Source: a virus (Duplodnaviria; Caudoviricetes). From it: a stretch of 52,533 nt of DNA. A program made the position numbers and the translations under genes. How positions within the stretch are numbered: position 1 is the first letter of the stretch; each line of letters opens with the position of its first letter. Where the stretch lies: positions 1 to 52,533 of the IMG/VR virus record IMGVR_UViG_3300014932_000216; one strand, given 5' to 3'. The notes beneath the pieces were generated by a model. The model saw only the letters and a program-made list of their open reading frames with translations, was not told the DNA's origin and did no database searches. Below, in pieces: positions 3,295 to 45,424 of this stretch.

Positions 3295-3699
3295 TTATTT
3301 TTTGACAAATTCGCCGAAAAATTTATTCCCCTTAATGCCCATGAACTCAATAAACTTAGCTTGTACTTCTGGTGATTTGTACTCGGTTATGTAATCAATG
3401 GGTGTATTCCGTTTTAAAAAATCATCCCTCTGATCCGGATTTAAACTGTCGGCATACCACTTAATTGAAGTTTCCACAATAGATATTTTCTCATCCGGCG
3501 CGGGTATGCGAGTTTCGTTGATTACGGAGAAGTCGTGGTCGTAAAACCGCTTATCTTCTCCGGCAATACGCCACATTAGATCAGACCCATCGCCATTATT
3601 ACAATACCACAATGCCGCCCGCCAGTGATCTCCGTAGAATTTAAGCTCATCGTCGGTCGTATCTATCTTCACCCAATAATAACCAGATTTGCGTTCCAT
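3295..3699 (-). CDS. Hypothetical protein (MERKxGYYWV family, paralogue of 5744..6097)
   Basis: Shares MERKxGYYWV and INETRIPxPDE blocks with 5744..6097. Confidence 0.7.
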   Translation of the reverse strand: MERKSGYYWVKIDTTDDELKFYGDHWRAALWYCNNGDGSDLMWRIAGEDKRFYDHDFSVINETRIPAPDEKISIVETSIKWYADSLNPDQRDDFLKRNTPIDYITEYKSPEVQAKFIEFMGIKGNKFFGEFVKK

Positions 3700-5743: not shown

Positions 5744-6097
5744 TTAGATTAAATTTTCTAATTCCCGAATCTCAGCATCGGTAAATGTCACATCGCTGTC
5801 TGGGTGGTTATTGCATCCCGGAAAGAAGTTAGTACCCTCTGTTTGATATACATGATTTATATATTTTTTTAGAATTAACCTATAATCAAGAGATGTGACG
5901 AAGATTTTATTATTGGTATCGGTAAGGGGCGGATCCTCTTCATCCGGCGTGGGTATGCGGGTTTCGTTGATTTCTAATAGTTTAATAGGTTTTACACTAT
6001 GAAGCCCTATTCCATCAGCAAAATTATTCCCGTCAAAATGCGCTACATGCCATCCTGATAATGATCTCACCCAATAATAACCTTCTTTGCGCTCCAT
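5744..6097 (-). CDS. Hypothetical protein (MERKxGYYWV family)
   Basis: Paralogue of 3295..3699. Confidence 0.7.
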   Translation of the reverse strand: MERKEGYYWVRSLSGWHVAHFDGNNFADGIGLHSVKPIKLLEINETRIPTPDEEDPPLTDTNNKIFVTSLDYRLILKKYINHVYQTEGTNFFPGCNNHPDSDVTFTDAEIRELENLI

Positions 6098-18365: not shown

Positions 18366-18424
18366 TGTTTTTTTTTATTTTTACTCTCCTTTAAAAACTA
18401 ACTCCCTAACTTTTATCGGGGGTG

Positions 18425-24176: not shown

Positions 24177-24656
24177 TTATGCTGCTAAAAGTTTTTTCAA
24201 ATTCACATAAGAAAGTTTAAGGCCTTTCATTGCTTCGCGCTGCGATTTATAGATAATACCGTTGTGGGTTATGGCGATCCTATTGTTAGTTCTATGATCA
24301 CACAATCCACTTTCCCATGCGTGCGCTATATTTTCCTTAGCGGTGCACCACTCTAAATTTTCTATACTGTTATCTGTTTTTATTCCATTTATGTGGTTAA
24401 TAAATGGTTTGTTATTTTGGTTCGGCACAAAAGCTATAGCTATTAATCTGTGAACTTTTTTGTGCTTAGGGGTTCCATTTTTTGACAAGCAAACGTGCAA
24501 ATAGCCGCCTATTTCATACTGAGTTGTGGGCTGACCATTATAAAAACGCACCCTTCCGCTATTTCCCCGTAGTGTTCTATCCACACTTCTTACATTACCA
24601 AGATTGCTAACCTGATAAATACCCTCATATCCTTTTATGTCTTTCCAGATTTCCAT
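24177..24656 (-). CDS. NUMOD4-HNH homing endonuclease
   Basis: EIWKDIKGYEGIYQVSNLGNVRS, VHRLIA and INHINGIKTDNSIENLEW. Confidence 0.92.
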   Translation of the reverse strand: MEIWKDIKGYEGIYQVSNLGNVRSVDRTLRGNSGRVRFYNGQPTTQYEIGGYLHVCLSKNGTPKHKKVHRLIAIAFVPNQNNKPFINHINGIKTDNSIENLEWCTAKENIAHAWESGLCDHRTNNRIAITHNGIIYKSQREAMKGLKLSYVNLKKLLAA

Positions 24657-24944: not shown

Positions 24945-25355
24945 TTAAATCATTGCTGATGAAAAGGTGAAGAACTTTTTTGCGTAAGATTTCGTGCTTG
25001 TGTGCACCTTATCCCTTCTGATTCCCCCATAAAGCAACTCCATAGTAGCTTTTGACTTGTGAGATAAATTCTCCGATTTAGTACACCATTCCAGATTTTT
25101 AACTCTCGCATCTGTCTTGTCGAAATTTCTGTGGTTCACCTCTGGCTTGTTTTCTGGGTTCGGAATAAAGGCGATTGCCACACATCTATGCACCGACACA
25201 TTGGCAATCTTTCCAGACTTATCTGGCATCGAAACCATTGGATAACCCATGCACATAACAGATTTTCTAACCAGCGTAGACCCTATTAGCCGTATGTTCC
25301 CAAGCGTACTAACCTCATATCTCGGGCACCTTTTTATTTTCTTCCACTTCTCCAT
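24945..25355 (-). CDS. NUMOD4-HNH homing endonuclease
   Basis: EKWKKI..YEVSTLGNIR, VHRCVA and VNHRNFDKTDARVKNLEW. Confidence 0.88.
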   Translation of the reverse strand: MEKWKKIKRCPRYEVSTLGNIRLIGSTLVRKSVMCMGYPMVSMPDKSGKIANVSVHRCVAIAFIPNPENKPEVNHRNFDKTDARVKNLEWCTKSENLSHKSKATMELLYGGIRRDKVHTSTKSYAKKFFTFSSAMI

Positions 25356-26516: not shown

Positions 26517-27680
26517 ATGAAACTACCTACCGTAAAAAACGTGCTTCGTAAGAAATTCAAGGGGGACAAAGAGGGTTATCTTTTCCTTCGTGTTGGTATG
26601 CCTGGTAATAAGATTCCAAAATTCAGGTCGTACAACTACAAGATTCCGGCGGCGCAATGGGACGAAGTGAGCGAGGTTGTAAAAAAGCCTCATATTGATG
26701 CTGGCCAGATAAATGCGGAGATAAGTGCGGAGAAAGACCGCATAGCTGATTTACTTAAATCGGAAGCCCGTAAAGGAACGACAATAACCAGTGATTATAT
26801 AGATGCCGTTCTTAACCCATCGGCCTCGCACGGGTCGTTCCTGCGATTCTACGATAGCTTTATTGAATTGCAGCGCACGAGGCATAGTAAAGGATATGCC
26901 GACCATCTGCTTATTGAGTATAACGGTGTAAAGCGATTTGCCGGGAATAACTTGCAGTTTGAGGACATTACCAGCGATTTCCTAGAGCGGTACGAAATGA
27001 GCCTTGCAAGCGGCAAAAAAAAGATTGCAGGCACCACCTTACATATCAAGATGAAGCGATTAAAAGAAGTTATTGCAAAGGCTGTTGATCGCGGGCATAT
27101 CGAAAAGAAAAAAGTAGCCGGGTATAAATACCCACCATATCCTGAGCCGGAGACGTTTTATTTGACGCTGGAGCAAGCGGATAAGATTTTCAACAATCTA
27201 AAGTCGGGTATTTATGACTATGACAGCAATGTAAGGTCGGTTGTTGCTTTCTTTCTGGTGGAATGCTTCTCAGGGATCCGGTTTAGTGACTGGAAACGAT
27301 TTGAGATTGAAAAGCTACTGCATGATGACAATTTGAAGGTAAGGGCAAAAAAGAACGGGGAGCCTGTTTACTTACCGCTAAGGGTATTTAAAAGGCTTGG
27401 GGCTATCATTGACTATATATCGGCAAACAAGGTCGCGTTTGACCTAGAGGAACAAAGTACGAACAGGATATTAAAATCTATAGGGCATGATTTGAAATTA
27501 AAGTTCCCGCTAACAACCCATGTGGGCCGGAGAACATGCGGGACTATGCTTGGTGAGCTCGGCTACTCTACGAGGGCGATTGCCGAGGTGTTGGGCATTA
27601 CAGAAATGACGGCAAAAAGATACGTGAAGCAGACCCGCCAGTCGTTAAATAATGAGTTTGAAAAGTTCGGCGGTATATAG
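26517..27680 (+). CDS. int: Tyrosine integrase
   Basis: Arm-binding N-terminus, SAM-like core, GIRFSD, K, THVGRRT and C-terminal KRY. Confidence 0.93.
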   Translation: MKLPTVKNVLRKKFKGDKEGYLFLRVGMPGNKIPKFRSYNYKIPAAQWDEVSEVVKKPHIDAGQINAEISAEKDRIADLLKSEARKGTTITSDYIDAVLNPSASHGSFLRFYDSFIELQRTRHSKGYADHLLIEYNGVKRFAGNNLQFEDITSDFLERYEMSLASGKKKIAGTTLHIKMKRLKEVIAKAVDRGHIEKKKVAGYKYPPYPEPETFYLTLEQADKIFNNLKSGIYDYDSNVRSVVAFFLVECFSGIRFSDWKRFEIEKLLHDDNLKVRAKKNGEPVYLPLRVFKRLGAIIDYISANKVAFDLEEQSTNRILKSIGHDLKLKFPLTTHVGRRTCGTMLGELGYSTRAIAEVLGITEMTAKRYVKQTRQSLNNEFEKFGGI

Positions 27681-27716
27681 GCCGGCTCGATGCCGCTATG
27701 GCGTTGTGGGAGAAAT

Positions 27717-27743
27717 AAAAAAGCCCCCATTTACGAAGGGGGC
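27717..27743 (-). terminator. Intrinsic terminator of the tmRNA gene
   Basis: GCCCCC-TTCGTAAAT-GGGGGC followed by T6. Confidence 0.8.
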
Positions 27744-27962
27744 AAGTTTCGTTAGGCGGCGATACTCACAGAGTACCGAGGCGTAAAGGCAATAGTTCTG
27801 CCGTTTATTGTTACATCTCCTCTTCTTCCCATCCCTTGCTGTCAAAACCAGTCGGCCCCGGTAATTTATCTATAAGGCGATGTTCTTACTCATCGCTTTG
27901 TGGAGCCGGTGGGAGTCGAACCCACGTCCAAACAAGTTTTCAAAAAGCGTCAACGGTTATGC
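27717..27962 (-). ncRNA. ssrA: Circularly permuted (two-piece) tmRNA gene
   Basis: The acceptor piece ...GGACGTGGGTTCGACTCCCACCGGCTCCA ends at 27901 and precedes a 41-nt spacer. The coding piece GGGGCCGACTGGTTTTGACAG starts at 27859. The acceptor stem has G3:U70, and the tag ORF at 27802..27752 encodes GRTIAFTPRYSVSIAA*. Confidence 0.88.
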
Positions 27963-27966
27963 TTTG

Positions 27967-27974
27967 TAAAGATA
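27967..27974 (-). promoter_or_regulatory. Putative -7 element (TATCTTTA) for the tmRNA gene
   Basis: One mismatch from TAnnTTTG, just upstream of the acceptor piece. Confidence 0.55.
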
Positions 27975-28094
27975 GTGGTTTTATAGATTTACCATTTCAA
28001 TTTAATTCGTTAGTTGTTTGCCGATTCATTTAAAATACCATTGATGCGCCGAAGCTGATCGAGGCCTTATTTCCGTCCTTTACCTGTTCTGTGT

Positions 28095-29409: not shown

Positions 29410-29474
29410 TTTTTGGAAGGTTTTTATCTCCGCTTCATTGCTTTGATACACAAATGTACACAACATTTTGATAC

Positions 29475-29743
29475 TACCAAATATTTGGTAATTATTTTTT
29501 GACTTTTATTTGTAGCTCCTTAATTATCTTGGTAAGTTCTTTCAACTTCGTATCGGGCAAACTGATAATGCCATTGACTACCTTATGAAAGTTGCTAACA
29601 TCATATTCAAGCCTGTTTGCAACCTCTCGCAGACTAATTAATTTCCTATTTTTGCGTATATATTCAATTGCTTGTTCCTTATCCATAAAAACAAAATTAT
29701 ACCATTTTTTTGGTAGTACAAAATACATACCATATATTTGGTG
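29475..29743. promoter_or_regulatory. Three TACCA-N6-TGGT(A/G) operator-like palindromes
   Basis: Copies at 29475-29490, 29700-29715 and 29728-29743, each next to or overlapping a TAnnTTTG element. Confidence 0.65.
29492..29686 (-). CDS. Small XRE-type HTH regulator
   Basis: ISLREVANRLEYDVSNFHKVVNG; start revised to MDKEQ. Confidence 0.75.
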   Translation of the reverse strand: MDKEQAIEYIRKNRKLISLREVANRLEYDVSNFHKVVNGIISLPDTKLKELTKIIKELQIKVKK

Positions 29744-40919: not shown

Positions 40920-42956
40920 TTAATATCCTCTTAGCTCTTCATAAACTTGAACAATTCCTAATACCGGAGATACAGACGCACCACCAGAATTGGAAAGCAC
41001 ATGCCATAACATCTGAGTGCTTGCGGCTGGTATTTTAGCGCTGTTCGTTGCGCTGTTTTTGGTACTCGCCGTTTTAGTGCGCCTCTCTATTTGTACTGCT
41101 GAATATGTTGTATTCGATGGCATTGTCACCGTAATAATGTACTCATCATTTACTGTTGGTGTTATCCCGGTATTCACCTTGGTAGCAGTACCGGAGCCAT
41201 TATTGAACATAAAGAATAGAGTGGCATCTGCCGCATCCTTGCCTACACCTATCGTGTTCAATACGGTTGATGGGTCGGTGGTGGATGACATATTGCCGGC
41301 CGTATTCACGTACCCCGCGAAGAACCGCTGAGTAGATACATATGATGGTAGCACGCAATCAATAACCAACCTTGCCCCGCCTCCATATTGAGAGTTATTT
41401 ATAAAGGCATCTAGCCCGGAAGCGGACATTCTCAATTCTACCGAAGTATTAGGGGATGCAGCCCCGGCGAGGTTGTTATACATAAGCATCGGTGCAATGT
41501 TGGATGCATCATAAGCGGCTACGTGAAATGTAGGTGTTCCATTTGTACCGACCTGTGATGTGAATCTACCAAGTGACTGAGTAGCGACTCCGTTAGTTGT
41601 CCACAGCCCCCAATGATGCATTCCATTTGCGGTTTGTAATGGCAGGTCCACACCGTTAGAATTAGCAGTCCAAAGTTCATCTTCTCCGTTTATATTATTG
41701 CCATACGCCTTTACATTACCACTGGATGGCAGTGTAGCACCCACGGTGTAAATGCCTGTCACGAAGTACATAAGCCCGTCGTTACCTATCCCGGCTCCGG
41801 TTGCGCCGCTGAATAGGCCGGAATTGTCATATTGTATTGCTCCGTTCGGTGTGCCGGGGGCTGGTATCAATGCCGCTATACTATCGGTCCCTTTGCGCCT
41901 GTATTGCCATGTTGCAAACCGGCTGCTGTCTGGCCTGAGCGTCCACGCAGGGTTGCTCCCGATTGTCTGCGCCGAACCACCGCCTAACATGCCATACCCG
42001 TTAGTAATGGTTTCCGTCTTTGCTGTAGCGATAGGATCCGTTTCTGTGTATGAGGTTAAAAATGTCAATAGCGACCAAGCGGCAATACTATCCGTGCCTT
42101 TTCTCCTATATTGCCACGATGACACCATGGAACTATCGGCCTTTAGTGTCCACGCGGGGTTACTCCCAATAGTTTGCGCAGCTCCGCCACCGAGCACGCC
42201 CCACCCATTTGTTATAGTGGCAGTTTTGGCGATTGCTATCGGGTCAGTCTCGGTGAACCCGGTAATATATCCTATCCCGGTAATGCTGTCCCGCACCTTA
42301 TCGAGCCGGGCTTTAGATGCCACCAAATAACTATCCACAGCAATGTTATTGCTCGATGTGATTATCGTTCCCCACACATTCACAACATTAGAAATACCAC
42401 CAAGCCCGGCGAGCGTATATCCGGGAATATTCAGTACATTAGAAATAAAGGTTGCACTGCCGCTGGTGCCTGATGTTGTAAACGATGCTATTCTATTCCC
42501 ATATGCGGTATTCCAATTGCTTTGGTCGGTCGTAGTTGGCAGATAGTACCCGGCCGTAAGGCTCAATACACCAGTAGTATTGTTGTAGGTAATCCCGGTA
42601 ATGCTCGATGATATGTCGGTCAATGAAATAAATGCGTCCGGGTTGCTCAGCGGGTAGTACGTTGCTGCCATAACCCCTAGCAGACTATCAATCGCTTTTT
42701 GCCGCCATAGGCGCGTACACCATGTAAAGCTGTCAATGGCGGCGGCTCCTGAATAAACCGGTATATTCAGAACACCTCCGGTATAGGTAGCCGCGCCGCT
42801 AGTGCCGGTAGTGGTTAACGTAAAGGCTGTGCCAGATGAGGGGATTATGTATGAACCATTAACATTTAATGGAACGGGGACGCCATTCAATGTAATAACC
42901 CTTGGCGATTGAGCAAAGCAAGAAATAGAAATTAGTAATAGTATTATAATTCTCAT
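40920..42956 (-). CDS. Tail fibre-like protein with N-terminal signal peptide and internal repeats
   Basis: G/T/S-rich; ETDP-containing block duplicated with a 69-aa period; TTxGTSGxAT...VLNIPxY twice; start MRIIILLLISISCFA-Q. Confidence 0.65.
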   Translation of the reverse strand: MRIIILLLISISCFAQSPRVITLNGVPVPLNVNGSYIIPSSGTAFTLTTTGTSGAATYTGGVLNIPVYSGAAAIDSFTWCTRLWRQKAIDSLLGVMAATYYPLSNPDAFISLTDISSSITGITYNNTTGVLSLTAGYYLPTTTDQSNWNTAYGNRIASFTTSGTSGSATFISNVLNIPGYTLAGLGGISNVVNVWGTIITSSNNIAVDSYLVASKARLDKVRDSITGIGYITGFTETDPIAIAKTATITNGWGVLGGGAAQTIGSNPAWTLKADSSMVSSWQYRRKGTDSIAAWSLLTFLTSYTETDPIATAKTETITNGYGMLGGGSAQTIGSNPAWTLRPDSSRFATWQYRRKGTDSIAALIPAPGTPNGAIQYDNSGLFSGATGAGIGNDGLMYFVTGIYTVGATLPSSGNVKAYGNNINGEDELWTANSNGVDLPLQTANGMHHWGLWTTNGVATQSLGRFTSQVGTNGTPTFHVAAYDASNIAPMLMYNNLAGAASPNTSVELRMSASGLDAFINNSQYGGGARLVIDCVLPSYVSTQRFFAGYVNTAGNMSSTTDPSTVLNTIGVGKDAADATLFFMFNNGSGTATKVNTGITPTVNDEYIITVTMPSNTTYSAVQIERRTKTASTKNSATNSAKIPAASTQMLWHVLSNSGGASVSPVLGIVQVYEELRGY

Positions 42957-43456
42957 TGTAGTAATTGTTCGAGGTTCGCTAAATCTTCCGCTATATCGGC
43001 TATATTTAATACTATATCGGCATTTACACTTGGCGGCGGTGAGCCTATTGTTGCAAACAAATCTGCAAATCCAGTATTCACATTCGTCATAAATGAGGAT
43101 AGGTGATTTATGAGATTTTGCAGATTAGTTAATAAACTTTGCTCTTGGTTTTTTATGCTTATCAGTCCGGTATTGTGCAGCCATATTTCCCCCATTAAAT
43201 TCCCGTCCGTATCTGTAGAATATTGCCTATACTCCCCCGGCTGCGCTAATGCGGAAATATTAACATAGCCCAACAGAACAGGCGCACCGCTCATTGACGT
43301 TTCATTATAGGCGGCCTGCATGCCGGGTATAGGTGAGCTGTCAACACCAAATGGCCCAACCTCTGTTGGTGTTCGGGCAAAGCCTTTACCCCACCCAGAA
43401 ACCGTTACGCTTCTATGCTCGTTATTGGTGGATGATATAACTTTTGCTATGTTCAA
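42953..43456 (-). CDS. Baseplate spike protein (Mu gp45-like)
   Basis: PFGVDSSPIPG and AQPGEYRQYS motifs; TTG start. Confidence 0.7.
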   Translation of the reverse strand: MNIAKVISSTNNEHRSVTVSGWGKGFARTPTEVGPFGVDSSPIPGMQAAYNETSMSGAPVLLGYVNISALAQPGEYRQYSTDTDGNLMGEIWLHNTGLISIKNQEQSLLTNLQNLINHLSSFMTNVNTGFADLFATIGSPPPSVNADIVLNIADIAEDLANLEQLLQ

Positions 43457-43630
43457 TTAAACCTCATTTGCATGAAGTTCTTTGACATATTGGATTTGGT
43501 AAGTGAAATAAAAAAGAAATCTTTGAGGTAGCAAAGGAAGATTTTGTTGCTATAATTTGACGTTATAGTTAAGCAGAAAGAAAACTACGGAAGAAAATAT
43601 TTGTTTTAATTTTTTGCTAGGCTTCTTATT

Positions 43631-43816
43631 ATGGAGAGTAAAAATAAAAACCTAATGACATTAGGTGAGCTTAGAGAAAAGCTTAAAATATACGGAGATG
43701 AATTTTATATCTCATTCGGAGATAAATACCTAACAAGGGTTGATAATAGAGATACAGATATTATCTTCTGCGAATGGATTTCTATTGAGGAATCCGACTA
43801 TTTAGAGAAGCCCTAA
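43631..43816 (+). CDS. Hypothetical protein inside the inverted-repeat cassette
   Basis: 61 aa with an MTLGELREKL motif; follows the left leader. Confidence 0.55.
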   Translation: MESKNKNLMTLGELREKLKIYGDEFYISFGDKYLTRVDNRDTDIIFCEWISIEESDYLEKP

Positions 43817-43988
43817 CCGGGTCTACGCCATCTAGTATGTGGCATATAAATTCTTTTGCTAATTCTCGCCTTACGGGCATCCATGACGATATGCCTTTGC
43901 CTGTTATTCTACTACGGATAATGAATTTATCCTTATAGGCCGTAATGGTGTATTCTTCCACTCCGTCAGGAACTTTCTCAAATGCCAT
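43782..43988 (-). CDS. Hypothetical protein inside the inverted-repeat cassette
   Basis: 68 aa; follows the right leader and overlaps the convergent ORF by 35 nt. Confidence 0.5.
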   Translation of the reverse strand: MAFEKVPDGVEEYTITAYKDKFIIRSRITGKGISSWMPVRRELAKEFICHILDGVDPVRASLNSRIPQ

Positions 43989-44242
43989 AATCTATGGCAG
44001 ATACTTTTTCCATGTAGCGTGCGCTCCGCGGCTTCAAAAAAATTAAAACAAATATTTTGTATCTAATCTTTCTTGCTCAACATAACGCGAATACATTATA
44101 GAACAAAATGCTCTCTTTGGTTATCTGCCACCTCAAAGATAAGGAGAAATTATTGGCATATCTGCCGCTAATCAAAATTTCTCCTTAATTCTTTTTTATT
44201 TCACTTACCAAATCCAATATGTCAAAGAACTTCAAAATCTTA

Positions 44243-45424
44243 CTAATTAAAAATATTTTTTACATCTTCATCATTATATACCTCAGGCAATACGCATGAG
44301 ATAACCGCCGTTTGCTCGTCTGCCGTTTGCCTGTAATCTACCTGCTCAATAAAGAATCTTGTGTTGTGGTATAGGTAGCATTCTGGATTCTTCGCGGTTA
44401 TTATCTGATTCGGCCTCACCAACTTTCCATTAAGTGTCCAACCAACTATTTCAATAGTTAGCGCGATTGCCTTTAATTCACTACCTAGTATTGTTCTAGA
44501 GGTGTCCGGCGTATCATTATCATCTCCTATAGATTGAATCTTTCTAGTGACACGCAAAACATTAGATGGTACATAGGGATTTGTTATTAAATCTTCTATG
44601 GCATTGCCGCCGTCCTGCTGGCCTATTACATGAATATGGCTGTGCATCTTCTGCCCATTTACGGGCATAGACATTTTAGTCCAGATAGATTGCCCCGGCT
44701 CAAAATGAAATATTGGTTTTGAGTTGAAATAAGTAATACTATTGGATAATGCGTTTGCCGCCGGTGCGCCGTCAATATCGCTAATGAATGGCGTCGTTGA
44801 TATGGGTTGCAGTGTCGTTGCCGTCTTGCTGCCCTTCTCTGCCTTTGACCTCGTGTAAAGCAATCTACCATCCACGGTATGAGACAATACAACATTTCTA
44901 TGCTCCGCCATTGAGGTTAAAAAATCCTCAATGGTCTGCGTTGGTGAAGCGGCTATTTTGGTATATACCTTGCTGCACTCATCCTTTACATTATCATCAA
45001 CTATACACGTACTGATATTTAGAGACGATGTGAGCCTATTTGAAATCTGCTCCAAACTTTGGTTCGCGAATTCAAGGCTGCCATTTGGCTGAATTGTCTC
45101 TGCACCCGTTTGCTGCAATAATGTAGAAAATACGCAGTTGTCAGCTAGCACCCCCGTAGTGGAATATCCCGATATGGCTGTTAATTCTTTCTTCGGTGAG
45201 CTACTAAACGCCTGCGATAAAAGCCGACCTGTTATTAACGTTTGCCCATTGTGTGATATGGTGCAGTGCTGGTAACTAACCGGCTTTAGTATGGATTTGT
45301 GAGCCGCATTAGTAGGGTCAAAATACAACTTAAAAGAAAAGGTATCGCCAATGCATGCATACCTGAGCGATACGCTTACTTCGCTGAACTTATCTATTGT
45401 ATGTGAGCCTACGGTTAGTTTCAT
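44243..45424 (-). CDS. Baseplate hub protein (Mu gpP-like)
   Basis: Size, ISGYSTTGVLAD and FFIEQVDY motifs, and position after the gpN-like gene. Confidence 0.75.
   Translation of the reverse strand: MKLTVGSHTIDKFSEVSVSLRYACIGDTFSFKLYFDPTNAAHKSILKPVSYQHCTISHNGQTLITGRLLSQAFSSSPKKELTAISGYSTTGVLADNCVFSTLLQQTGAETIQPNGSLEFANQSLEQISNRLTSSLNISTCIVDDNVKDECSKVYTKIAASPTQTIEDFLTSMAEHRNVVLSHTVDGRLLYTRSKAEKGSKTATTLQPISTTPFISDIDGAPAANALSNSITYFNSKPIFHFEPGQSIWTKMSMPVNGQKMHSHIHVIGQQDGGNAIEDLITNPYVPSNVLRVTRKIQSIGDDNDTPDTSRTILGSELKAIALTIEIVGWTLNGKLVRPNQIITAKNPECYLYHNTRFFIEQVDYRQTADEQTAVISCVLPEVYNDEDVKNIFN

Follow-up and report, generated by a model that had tools for sequence, protein, structure and literature searches.

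Ribosomal RNA (rRNA) operons and lambdoid phages are the textbook setting of antitermination through boxA, an RNA site that loads NusB/NusE and functions only as RNA, and to our knowledge boxA-dependent antitermination has hardly been described outside Proteobacteria. Here we describe an inverted pair of Bacteroidota-type boxA elements in a phage genome, the IMG/VR virus record IMGVR_UViG_3300014932_000216 (Caudoviricetes), whose 52,533 bp form the window analyzed throughout, a single metagenome-assembled contig classed as linear and about 89% complete. Between positions 43473 and 44234, the window holds a cassette of two small convergent genes enclosed by perfect 46-bp inverted repeats and placed between two genes of the tail module, and the repeats turn out to be built on the rRNA antitermination signal of the host phylum. 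We lean, tentatively, toward an account in which the repeats head two inward-facing RNA leaders that carry transcription across the insert.

The closest described systems each share part of this layout. In the nut sites of lambda, boxA precedes boxB, and the right arm of the cassette likewise has boxA followed by a hairpin 25 nucleotides (nt) further on, the outer 21 nt of the arm being identical to the element found in the 16S-23S spacer of Bacteroidota. Unlike a nut boxA, the cassette has two inverted copies facing each other across convergent genes, within 46-bp repeats and in the middle of a structural operon, whereas nutL and nutR closely follow early promoters that point away from each other, and we know of no N-like protein for this phage. 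The leader-trailer helices of 16S and 23S precursor rRNA, which are substrates of RNase III, offer another likeness, since they also set boxA beside long complementary segments that bracket a payload; here, in contrast, the bracketed payload of 0.42-0.67 kb holds genes for two small proteins instead of rRNA, and boxA lies inside the helix. Transfer RNA (tRNA) arrays headed by boxA in phages of Bacteroidota carry the exact 17-mer discussed below, in sense orientation and ahead of untranslated RNA, but as single copies by tRNA genes, whereas the boxA of the cassette heads the leaders of small protein genes.

As an insert between genes that are adjacent in relatives, with a G+C content of 34% against 43% for the genome and a terminator-like hairpin, the cassette resembles a phage moron, from which it differs in that its two convergent genes are each preceded by a copy of one 145-nt leader, with boxA inverted between the two copies, and in that a consensus promoter was not found. 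The G segment of Mu, the C segment of P1, and the invertons of Bacteroides similarly have perfect inverted repeats around two-fold symmetric convergent genes in a tail module; in contrast, the cassette is without an adjacent invertase and its genes are not tail-fiber halves fused to a constant part. Finally, Correia-type miniature inverted-repeat transposable elements (MITEs) and mobile insertion cassettes have terminal inverted repeats without a transposase, and their co-transcribed copies can form RNase III-sensitive hairpins, but the present cassette is single-copy, has no target duplication, shows very long subterminal homology, and carries a host RNA signal at its ends.

The ends of the repeats match the spacer boxA of Bacteroidota rRNA operons

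A BLAST search of the cassette against 401 Bacteroidota genomes returned, for bases 1-21 of the arm, matches at 21 of 21 positions at two places each in two genomes (G085 and G041), and all four sites lie in rRNA operons, in sense orientation, between the spacer tRNAs and the 23S gene, 60-100 nt before the latter. Allowing at most one mismatch, the 17-mer GTTCTTTGACATATTGG was found 37 times, in 28 of 201 genomes, compared with 7 times for the reversed control. In nine of ten loci examined, it follows the last spacer tRNA and precedes 23S by 39-202 nt, while the tenth, which has one mismatch (L096), has no rRNA. In two of these operons, the 16S leader has a boxA variant, AAGTTCTTTGAGAGACTGG or AAGATCTTTGAAAGAATGG (in the forms TTCTTTGAGAGA and ATCTTTGAAAGA), and a leader copy together with a spacer copy is the classic boxA arrangement. 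At the level of letters, GTTCTTTGACA agrees at 10 of 11 positions with GYTCTTTAANA, a consensus that is gamma-proteobacterial (PMC5725501), the difference being G for A at position 8. Position in leader and spacer, together with the sequence, thus identifies the element as boxA, and on this basis the outer 21 nt of each arm are a Bacteroidota rRNA spacer-type boxA.

Since boxA works only as RNA, the orientation of the two copies matters. The left copy is in sense on the + strand and faces inward to the first small gene (ORF1, for open reading frame 1), and the right copy is in sense on the - strand, the strand of the genes of the late operon on either side (Table 1). These are the only boxA copies in the window, and the tail modules of related phages contain no conserved boxA, with only chance-level 10-mers (13 in 486 kb) being found.

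Rfam gave no match at gathering score in the cassette. Both arms match RF02956 (DUF2693 RNA) at 20 bits against a threshold of 81.3 (E 0.2); we rejected membership and attribute the weak match to a boxA-like unpaired 5' stretch in the model consensus, the family itself not having been found in 151 Bacteroidota genomes or 14 controls. That the unpaired 5' end of the RF02956 consensus (GaUCUUUGACAUAcUUGAU...) resembles the Bacteroidota boxA is an observation in its own right, and the DUF2693 RNA family may, to judge from this likeness, also be transcribed under Nus-factor control. A 33-nt match in one genome (G329) was dropped as chance, as it is the start of a protein gene (ATG TCA AAG AAC...).

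The same element is widespread in phages of this phylum

The exact 17-mer is present in at least 115 IMG/VR contigs (L106-L220), against 2 for the reversed control. None of these 115 listed loci has rRNA near boxA. Instead, a sense tRNA starts at most 150 nt downstream of boxA in 50 of the 115 (46 of 97 distinct contexts; median distance 10 nt), a sense tRNA ends at most 150 nt upstream in 40 of them, and 16 have a Bacteroidota -7 box (TAnnTTTG) no more than 45 nt upstream of boxA. An Rfam scan of 20 further boxA loci found tRNA genes in 15, mostly as arrays. Judged by these neighborhoods, phages of Bacteroidota routinely put a host-type boxA in untranslated transcription units, most of them apparently tRNA arrays, a habit for which our literature search found no description. 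Several of the phage copies are directly preceded by a hairpin with a T-run or by a TAnnTTTG box.

The present locus departs from this pattern: the window has no tRNA gene, and a second, inverted boxA copy within 1.5 kb was found at 0 of the 115 listed loci. One phage thus has an inverted pair of host-type boxA elements around a two-gene insert in its tail operon.

The arms are homologous over about 145 nt, and a hairpin is confined to the right arm

A repeat search of the whole record showed that the 46-nt arms (43473-43518 and 44189-44234) are 100% complementary at a spacing of 670 nt and form its sole long inverted repeat. With up to three mismatches, the 46-mer occurs in the window at these two sites alone, and none of 100 shuffled sequences gave a match. 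The homology extends inward for about 145 nt, to 43615 on the left and 44037 on the right, where it ends in the 22-mer AAAATATTTGTTTTAATTTTTT, present in the window only at 43594-43615 (+) and 44037-44058 (-), with 0 occurrences expected. In a gap-tolerant alignment of the inner arms, 82 of 89 ungapped columns are identical (92%). The seven substitutions comprise four A/G and three G/C differences, and the remaining difference consists of indels, with 71 gap columns in all, of which 48 form a single block that only the right arm has (44141-44188) and the other 23 lie elsewhere. At all four transition differences, the left arm has A and the right arm G, so that they are G-U wobbles in - strand RNA only.

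The cassette is a real and unusual feature, and the anatomy that the sequence-only reading of this DNA had given it is correct: it had described perfect 46-bp repeats, diverged inverted homology continuing inward, an identical 22-bp segment in both arms, two small ORFs of 61 and 68 amino acids (aa) overlapping tail to tail (by 35 nt, as we find), and an extra hairpin in the right arm alone. The divergence by substitution is smaller than it appeared. Also as described, the cassette holds no recombinase or transposase ORF in the ORF list, and a comparison of the flanks, ...CCTCATTTGCA| on one side and |AAATCTTACTAA on the other, revealed no direct repeat beside the arm ends that could be a target-site duplication.

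The right-arm hairpin has 12-nt perfect arms (44140-44151 and 44176-44187) and is followed on the + strand by AAUUCUUUUUUAUUU, the U-run being supplied by bases 44189-44201 of the right repeat itself. Folding of the + strand from 44100 to 44245 gave a minimum free energy of -25.0 against -15.5 for shuffled sequences (z -3.44), and 0 of 200 shuffles were as stable, whereas the equivalent left-arm sequence on the - strand gave z -0.14. From its letters, the hairpin with its U-run looks like an intrinsic terminator of the + strand, acting against transcripts antisense to the late operon. A second, smaller terminator-like hairpin over the start of ORF2 (Table 1) is weak, one such site being found against 1.3 expected in shuffles.

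Full-consensus Bacteroidota promoters (TTTG-N17-22-TAnnTTTG) number six in the window against 2.2 expected, all of them outside the cassette arms. At the cassette, the nearest candidates are TTTG-N19-AATCTTTG in the left arm and, in the right arm, TATCTTTG, which lacks a -33 element. The hairpin had been proposed to create a promoter box; TATCTTTG is indeed present beside it, but it lacks a correctly spaced -33 TTTG, and its letters can also be taken as a second boxA-like motif. In the same way, ATCTTTGAGGT just inward of each 46-bp repeat can be read either as a second, leader-type boxA-like motif or as a -7 box. Elsewhere in the window, three of the full-consensus promoters (two -, one +) lie within 300 nt at 29451-29740, partly overlapping back to back, a region that is probably an early or immunity control region.

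Table 1. Positions of the features of the cassette and of its two flanking genes in the window
Feature	Position	Strand	Description
167-aa tail-module gene (downstream flank)	42953..43456	-	phrog_5226 (function unknown), 8e-25; follows the hub gene in relatives (synteny)
Left 46-bp arm	43473..43518	+	Perfect repeat; its first 21 nt (43473-43493, TGAAGTTCTTTGACATATTGG) are the Bacteroidota rRNA-type boxA
Left boxA	43473-43493	+	Sense on +; faces inward to ORF1
Left inner arm	43519..43615	+	Putative untranslated leader of ORF1, from the alignment with the right inner arm; own fold not significant (z -0.49)
Second motif, left	43519-43529	+	ATCTTTGAGGT; boxA-like or -7-like
Conserved block, left inner arm		+	TTTTGTT..CTATAAT
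22-mer, left	43594-43615	+	Perfect; ends 15 nt ahead of the ORF1 ATG
ORF1	43631..43816	+	61 aa; antisense to the late operon; small protein family
ORF2	43782..43988	-	68 aa; late-operon strand; orphan
Small terminator-like hairpin	43983..43999	+	U-rich tail; about 170 nt past the ORF1 stop, over the ORF2 start; 7-bp stem with 3 G-C pairs
Right inner arm	44037..44140	-	Putative untranslated leader of ORF2; homologous to the left inner arm
22-mer, right	44058-44037	-	Ends 48 nt ahead of the ORF2 ATG
Second motif, right	44140-44130	-	ATCTTTGAGGT
Hairpin block, right arm only	44141..44188		48 nt; indel relative to the left arm; on the - strand, 25 nt after boxA and without a U-run
Right 46-bp arm	44189..44234	-	Perfect repeat; boxA at 44234-44214
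Right boxA	44234-44214	-	Sense on -, like the hub gene and the tail genes after it; begins 8 nt past the hub stop codon
Baseplate hub gene (gp44-like; upstream flank)	44243..45424	-	393 aa; phrog_177, 2e-37; 123 phage records match

The cassette is an insertion between two tail genes that are usually adjacent

The cassette fits closely between its neighbors. The hub gene ends 8 nt from the right repeat, and the 167-aa gene starts 16 nt from the left one and keeps its own 16 nt upstream, GAGG included. Within the hub protein, the Gp44-like second domain scores 20.7 bits to PF22255, below the Pfam cut-off of 27. The downstream gene had been called a spike gene, for which we found no support, as the sole family match of its protein is the one given in Table 1. 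The nearest cultured relatives are phages of Cellulophaga and Flavobacterium, with a hub identity of 28-29%, and in these the two genes overlap by 8 nt (phiSM) or are separated by 1 nt (FCV-1) or 132 nt (FL-1), compared with 786 nt here.

A search with a hub alignment added 66 IMG/VR loci and three genome loci, these from metagenome-assembled genomes (MAGs) of Cyclobacteriaceae, Flavobacteriales, and Treponema. The 167-aa gene lies downstream on the same strand in 64 of 72 hub-bearing loci, and the corrected gap between the two is at most 60 nt in 51 of these 64, 61-200 nt in 4, 201-500 nt in 5, and more than 500 nt in 4. Because the two genes stand at most 60 nt apart in 51 of the 64 related loci, the 786-nt stretch is an insertion, as the sequence-only reading had proposed. 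Single-protein scans found no close phage relative, and the top hub identity in any locus is 38%, so that there is no empty site comparable at the DNA level.

With nine of 64 gaps above 200 nt, the junction between hub and 167-aa gene is a recurrent insertion point in this phage group. Other insertions at this point (L038, L054, L061, L063, and L065) measure about 0.4 to 2.4 kb and contain unrelated ORFs, for example one of 166 aa (L065) and a lipoprotein-like one of 43 aa (L038). No long inverted repeat or boxA was found in the junction insertions of the relatives, nor do these encode relatives of ORF1 or ORF2.

Inward-facing boxA leaders as a possible explanation of the cassette

Long untranslated stretches inside an operon invite Rho-dependent polarity, and the cassette is rich in them. 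The following account takes the 786-nt stretch as a foreign two-gene insert of the moron type, whose inverted arms would be duplicated, transcribed leaders rather than the ends of a recombining or transposing element; Nus loading, protection against Rho, promoter positions, and processing are what we infer beyond the observed layout. The right boxA shares its sense strand with the hub gene and the genes downstream, and RNA polymerase coming off the hub gene would transcribe it at once, 8 nt past the stop codon. The polymerase would next have to cross about 245 untranslated nt, then ORF2, and then about 325 untranslated nt before the next tail gene, an insert of about 790 nt in all. In rRNA operons and in lambda, polymerase loaded at boxA resists Rho (PMC12360218), and a polymerase loaded in this manner could escape polarity and reach ORF2 as well as the downstream tail, fiber, and portal genes, the right arm serving as an anti-polarity device for read-through of the late operon.

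On the + strand, the left boxA would head the antisense transcript of ORF1. The hairpin and U-run being present on the right only, such antisense transcription would be stopped before it enters the hub gene, whereas late transcription in the opposite direction would run unhindered to the next gene. Any transcript that includes both arms could fold a long leader-trailer helix, of 46 perfect pairs and an interrupted extension, that is a likely substrate for RNase III. We consider it doubtful, although worth stating, that the process goes one step further, with the perfectly complementary trailer, emerging about 700 nt after a leader held by boxA and Nus factors, zipping into a helix from which RNase III excises the insert as a stable RNA.

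If the account of inward-facing leaders is correct, foreign genes with long untranslated stretches can sit in an essential operon without causing Rho-dependent polarity, and the locus may be a natural case of rRNA-style leader-trailer processing on a messenger RNA. Were excision to occur as well, the RNA of an essential operon would be rid of the insert by the insert's own action, with antitermination bracketed by boxA and anti-boxA. The locus also cautions that long perfect inverted repeats in phage genomes are not necessarily DNA switches or transposon ends.

Several observations weigh against this account. No consensus promoter was found upstream of either boxA, nor in or just outside the arms, and the left boxA, being without a visible promoter, may not be transcribed in sense; the positions equivalent to the TAnnTTTG box of other phage copies read CTCATTTG and AGATTTTG here. 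A boxA near a ribosome-binding site or start codon can favor Rho termination, as reported for suhB (PMC12360218), and with this precedent the direction of the boxA effect in the cassette could be either. The junction insertions of the relatives manage without boxA or repeats, and an anti-polarity device is thus no general need at this point. The perfect identity over 46 nt exceeds what boxA requires: 46 identical columns have a chance of about 0.02 at an inner identity of 92%, and gene conversion or selection for pairing may be responsible. A gene-conversion tract would be bounded by the end of the homology on one side and by the 48-nt heterology on the other. As for pairing, the 4-to-0 wobble bias is too small for significance. 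In addition, ORF2 has no homologue of similar or greater length.

Alternative explanations of the inverted repeats

RNA processing may be the main role of the cassette, which we regard as unlikely but as a real possibility. A panhandle in the late polycistronic RNA would then be cut by RNase III and an RNA of about 700 nt released, sense for ORF2 and antisense for ORF1, with boxA, as in rRNA maturation, mainly keeping the leader tethered to the polymerase up to the emergence of the trailer. An antitermination complex acting with the leader-trailer helix has been described (PMC10250234), and in the cassette, boxA heads the 5' strand as it does beside rRNA processing stems. The arms are predicted to pair over about 140 nt on either strand (-129.3 kcal/mol for + RNA and -138.7 kcal/mol for - RNA), whole-cassette folds bring the 46-nt arms together, and the wobble-compatible differences all favor the - strand. 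However, an inverted duplication pairs by construction, so its energy is no evidence of selection, the one-sided chance of the four-of-four wobble count is 1 in 16, the inner arms contain those 71 gap columns, boxA lies inside the helix and not upstream of it, and the + strand terminator would end that transcript before most of the 46-nt complement. The sequence-only reading had offered an RNA panhandle that loops out or releases a roughly 670-nt ambisense RNA, or else an invertible switch; of the two, the RNA-level idea gains support from repeats that begin with an rRNA boxA and from arms that pair on either strand, while a released or circular 670-nt RNA stays a proposal. The switch, in which recombination at the repeats by a host or phage recombinase, or by homologous recombination, would flip 43519-44188 and bring either ORF1 or ORF2 into sense with the late operon, seems to us quite improbable. 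It would fit the two-fold layout with convergent genes known from Mu G and P1 C; 46 bp is a repeat length sufficient for homologous recombination, and perfect repeats with a sharp boundary at the 48-nt heterology are the expected trace of gene conversion between recombining repeats. Candidate invertons have been reported on metagenome-assembled viral contigs (PMC13501310). Against inversion, the 52.5-kb, 89%-complete record gave 0 matches to serine recombinases (Resolvase family), for which the control was positive in 13 of 14 genomes, and its lone tyrosine recombinase is the integrase at 26517-27680, 16 kb away, although a host enzyme may act on the repeats in trans. The repeat is unlike the att region (local score 15, equalled by 7% of random windows), its outer 21 nt are accounted for by boxA, and after inversion the hairpin and U-run would be a - strand intrinsic terminator directly upstream of the 167-aa gene, inside the late operon.

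A non-autonomous transposable cassette of the MITE or mobile insertion cassette type, with the 46-bp repeats as terminal inverted repeats mobilized in trans and the two genes as passengers, is in our judgment very unlikely. Terminal inverted repeats, the lack of an internal transposase, the precise intergenic fit, and the insertion hotspot at the junction would all suit it. Yet there is no target-site duplication, the homology reaches about 145 nt into the cassette, and a host RNA signal makes up the ends. No second copy was found in the window, in IMG/VR (exact 37-mer and 22-mer), in JGI metagenomes (22-mer), in phage and plasmid records (blastn), or in two related MAGs; short-word blastn against 75 loci and the rest of the window gave AT-rich matches only, with E at or above 0.01, and the 401 Bacteroidota genomes gave short boxA or AT-rich matches only; no insertion-sequence library was among these collections. 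The arrangement could also be a historical accident, improbable as this appears to us, in which the back-to-back arrival of two morons left an inverted duplicate of a leader headed by boxA, the 46-nt identity being a recent gene-conversion tract. Unrelated insertions do occur at the same junction in relatives, phages of this phylum commonly use boxA modules as building blocks, and the perfect block is only moderately unlikely at the value given above; each arm, however, is perfect at both of its ends, over 46 nt at one and, separately, over 22 nt at the other, and the asymmetry of the hairpin makes functional sense. An assembly artefact such as a fold-back chimera has to be considered for any metagenome-assembled contig, but it is extremely unlikely here, given that such chimeras give long perfect inverted copies, whereas these arms differ by substitutions and at least six indels and enclose unique sequence with a conserved gene, and the genes on either side are uninterrupted and stand in the order expected.

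The two small genes of the cassette

ORF1 is a gene of a small protein family, by homology and codon usage. An exhaustive HMMER search found four related small proteins of 54-158 aa at 40-55% identity (E 3e-13 to 8e-6), where a word-indexed search had returned ORF1 alone, and the family shares the pattern L..GEL..L..Y.D.Y.I.FGD.YL..D...T....W. A shrimp protein of 3000 aa (P0002), which had come up as a further candidate relative, matched in 18 stretches and was rejected as a repeat artefact. The codon-usage score of ORF1, 0.356 per codon, is within the range of the real genes of the phage and was reached by 0 of 68 spurious ORFs, and its structural model has a predicted local distance difference test score (pLDDT) of 72. 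In one protein (P0006) and at one metagenome locus (L077, 208-669, +), the ORF1 domain shares a polypeptide with a C-terminal domain of RNA polymerase alpha (PF03118 at 36 and 41 bits against a cut-off of 23.8), a fusion that hints at a link between the family and transcription.

ORF2 probably codes for a protein as well, with a codon score of 0.158, just above the best of the 68 spurious ORFs (0.150). Its best Atlas score is 0.78, and Atlas scores of 0.78 and 0.88 are below a meaningful level. Five single-sequence models of ORF2 gave a pLDDT of 71.5 for the best and 46-54 for the other four, and we set aside RNase H-like matches at E of about 0.02, which rest on the single-sequence model. ORF1 and ORF2 show no similarity to each other and are thus not diverged paralogues. 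Neither has a family in Pfam, PHROG, NCBIfam, or PADLOC, and Foldseek against the PDB gave no match below E 0.001 for either model. We also rejected a type I toxin-antitoxin or convergent antisense pair, which the 35-nt 3' overlap would suit, but neither ORF is hydrophobic and neither has a PADLOC, Pfam, or NCBIfam match. The start region of ORF1 (43626-43650) is 88% complementary over 25 nt to 18372-18396, just upstream of the start of an RNA ligase gene, a match that may be due to chance or to a shared translation-start context.

Other features of the record

Beside the integrase gene (+) lies a gene resembling transfer-messenger RNA (tmRNA) at 27661-27990 (-), classified by ARAGORN as a permuted tmRNA with the tag GRTIAFTPRYSVSIAA and matching Rfam tmRNA_permuted at 56.1 bits against a cut-off of 47. 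Among the 401 Bacteroidota genomes, 109 match just two short blocks of it, and in genomes with both blocks (for example, G297, G281, G125, and G357), the order of the two is reversed and about 360 nt separate them, so that the phage tmRNA looks circularly permuted relative to the one-piece gene of the host. Near the integrase region, two neighboring genes resemble homing endonucleases with NUMOD4 and HNH_3 domains (24177-24656 and 24945-25355, -). Direct repeats of 31-33 nt with 87-94% identity occur at 3491-3523 and 5940-5972 and at 3669-3699 and 6067-6097, and the ORFs at 3295-3699 and 5744-6097, which flank the large terminase gene, are by this similarity paralogous at least in part.

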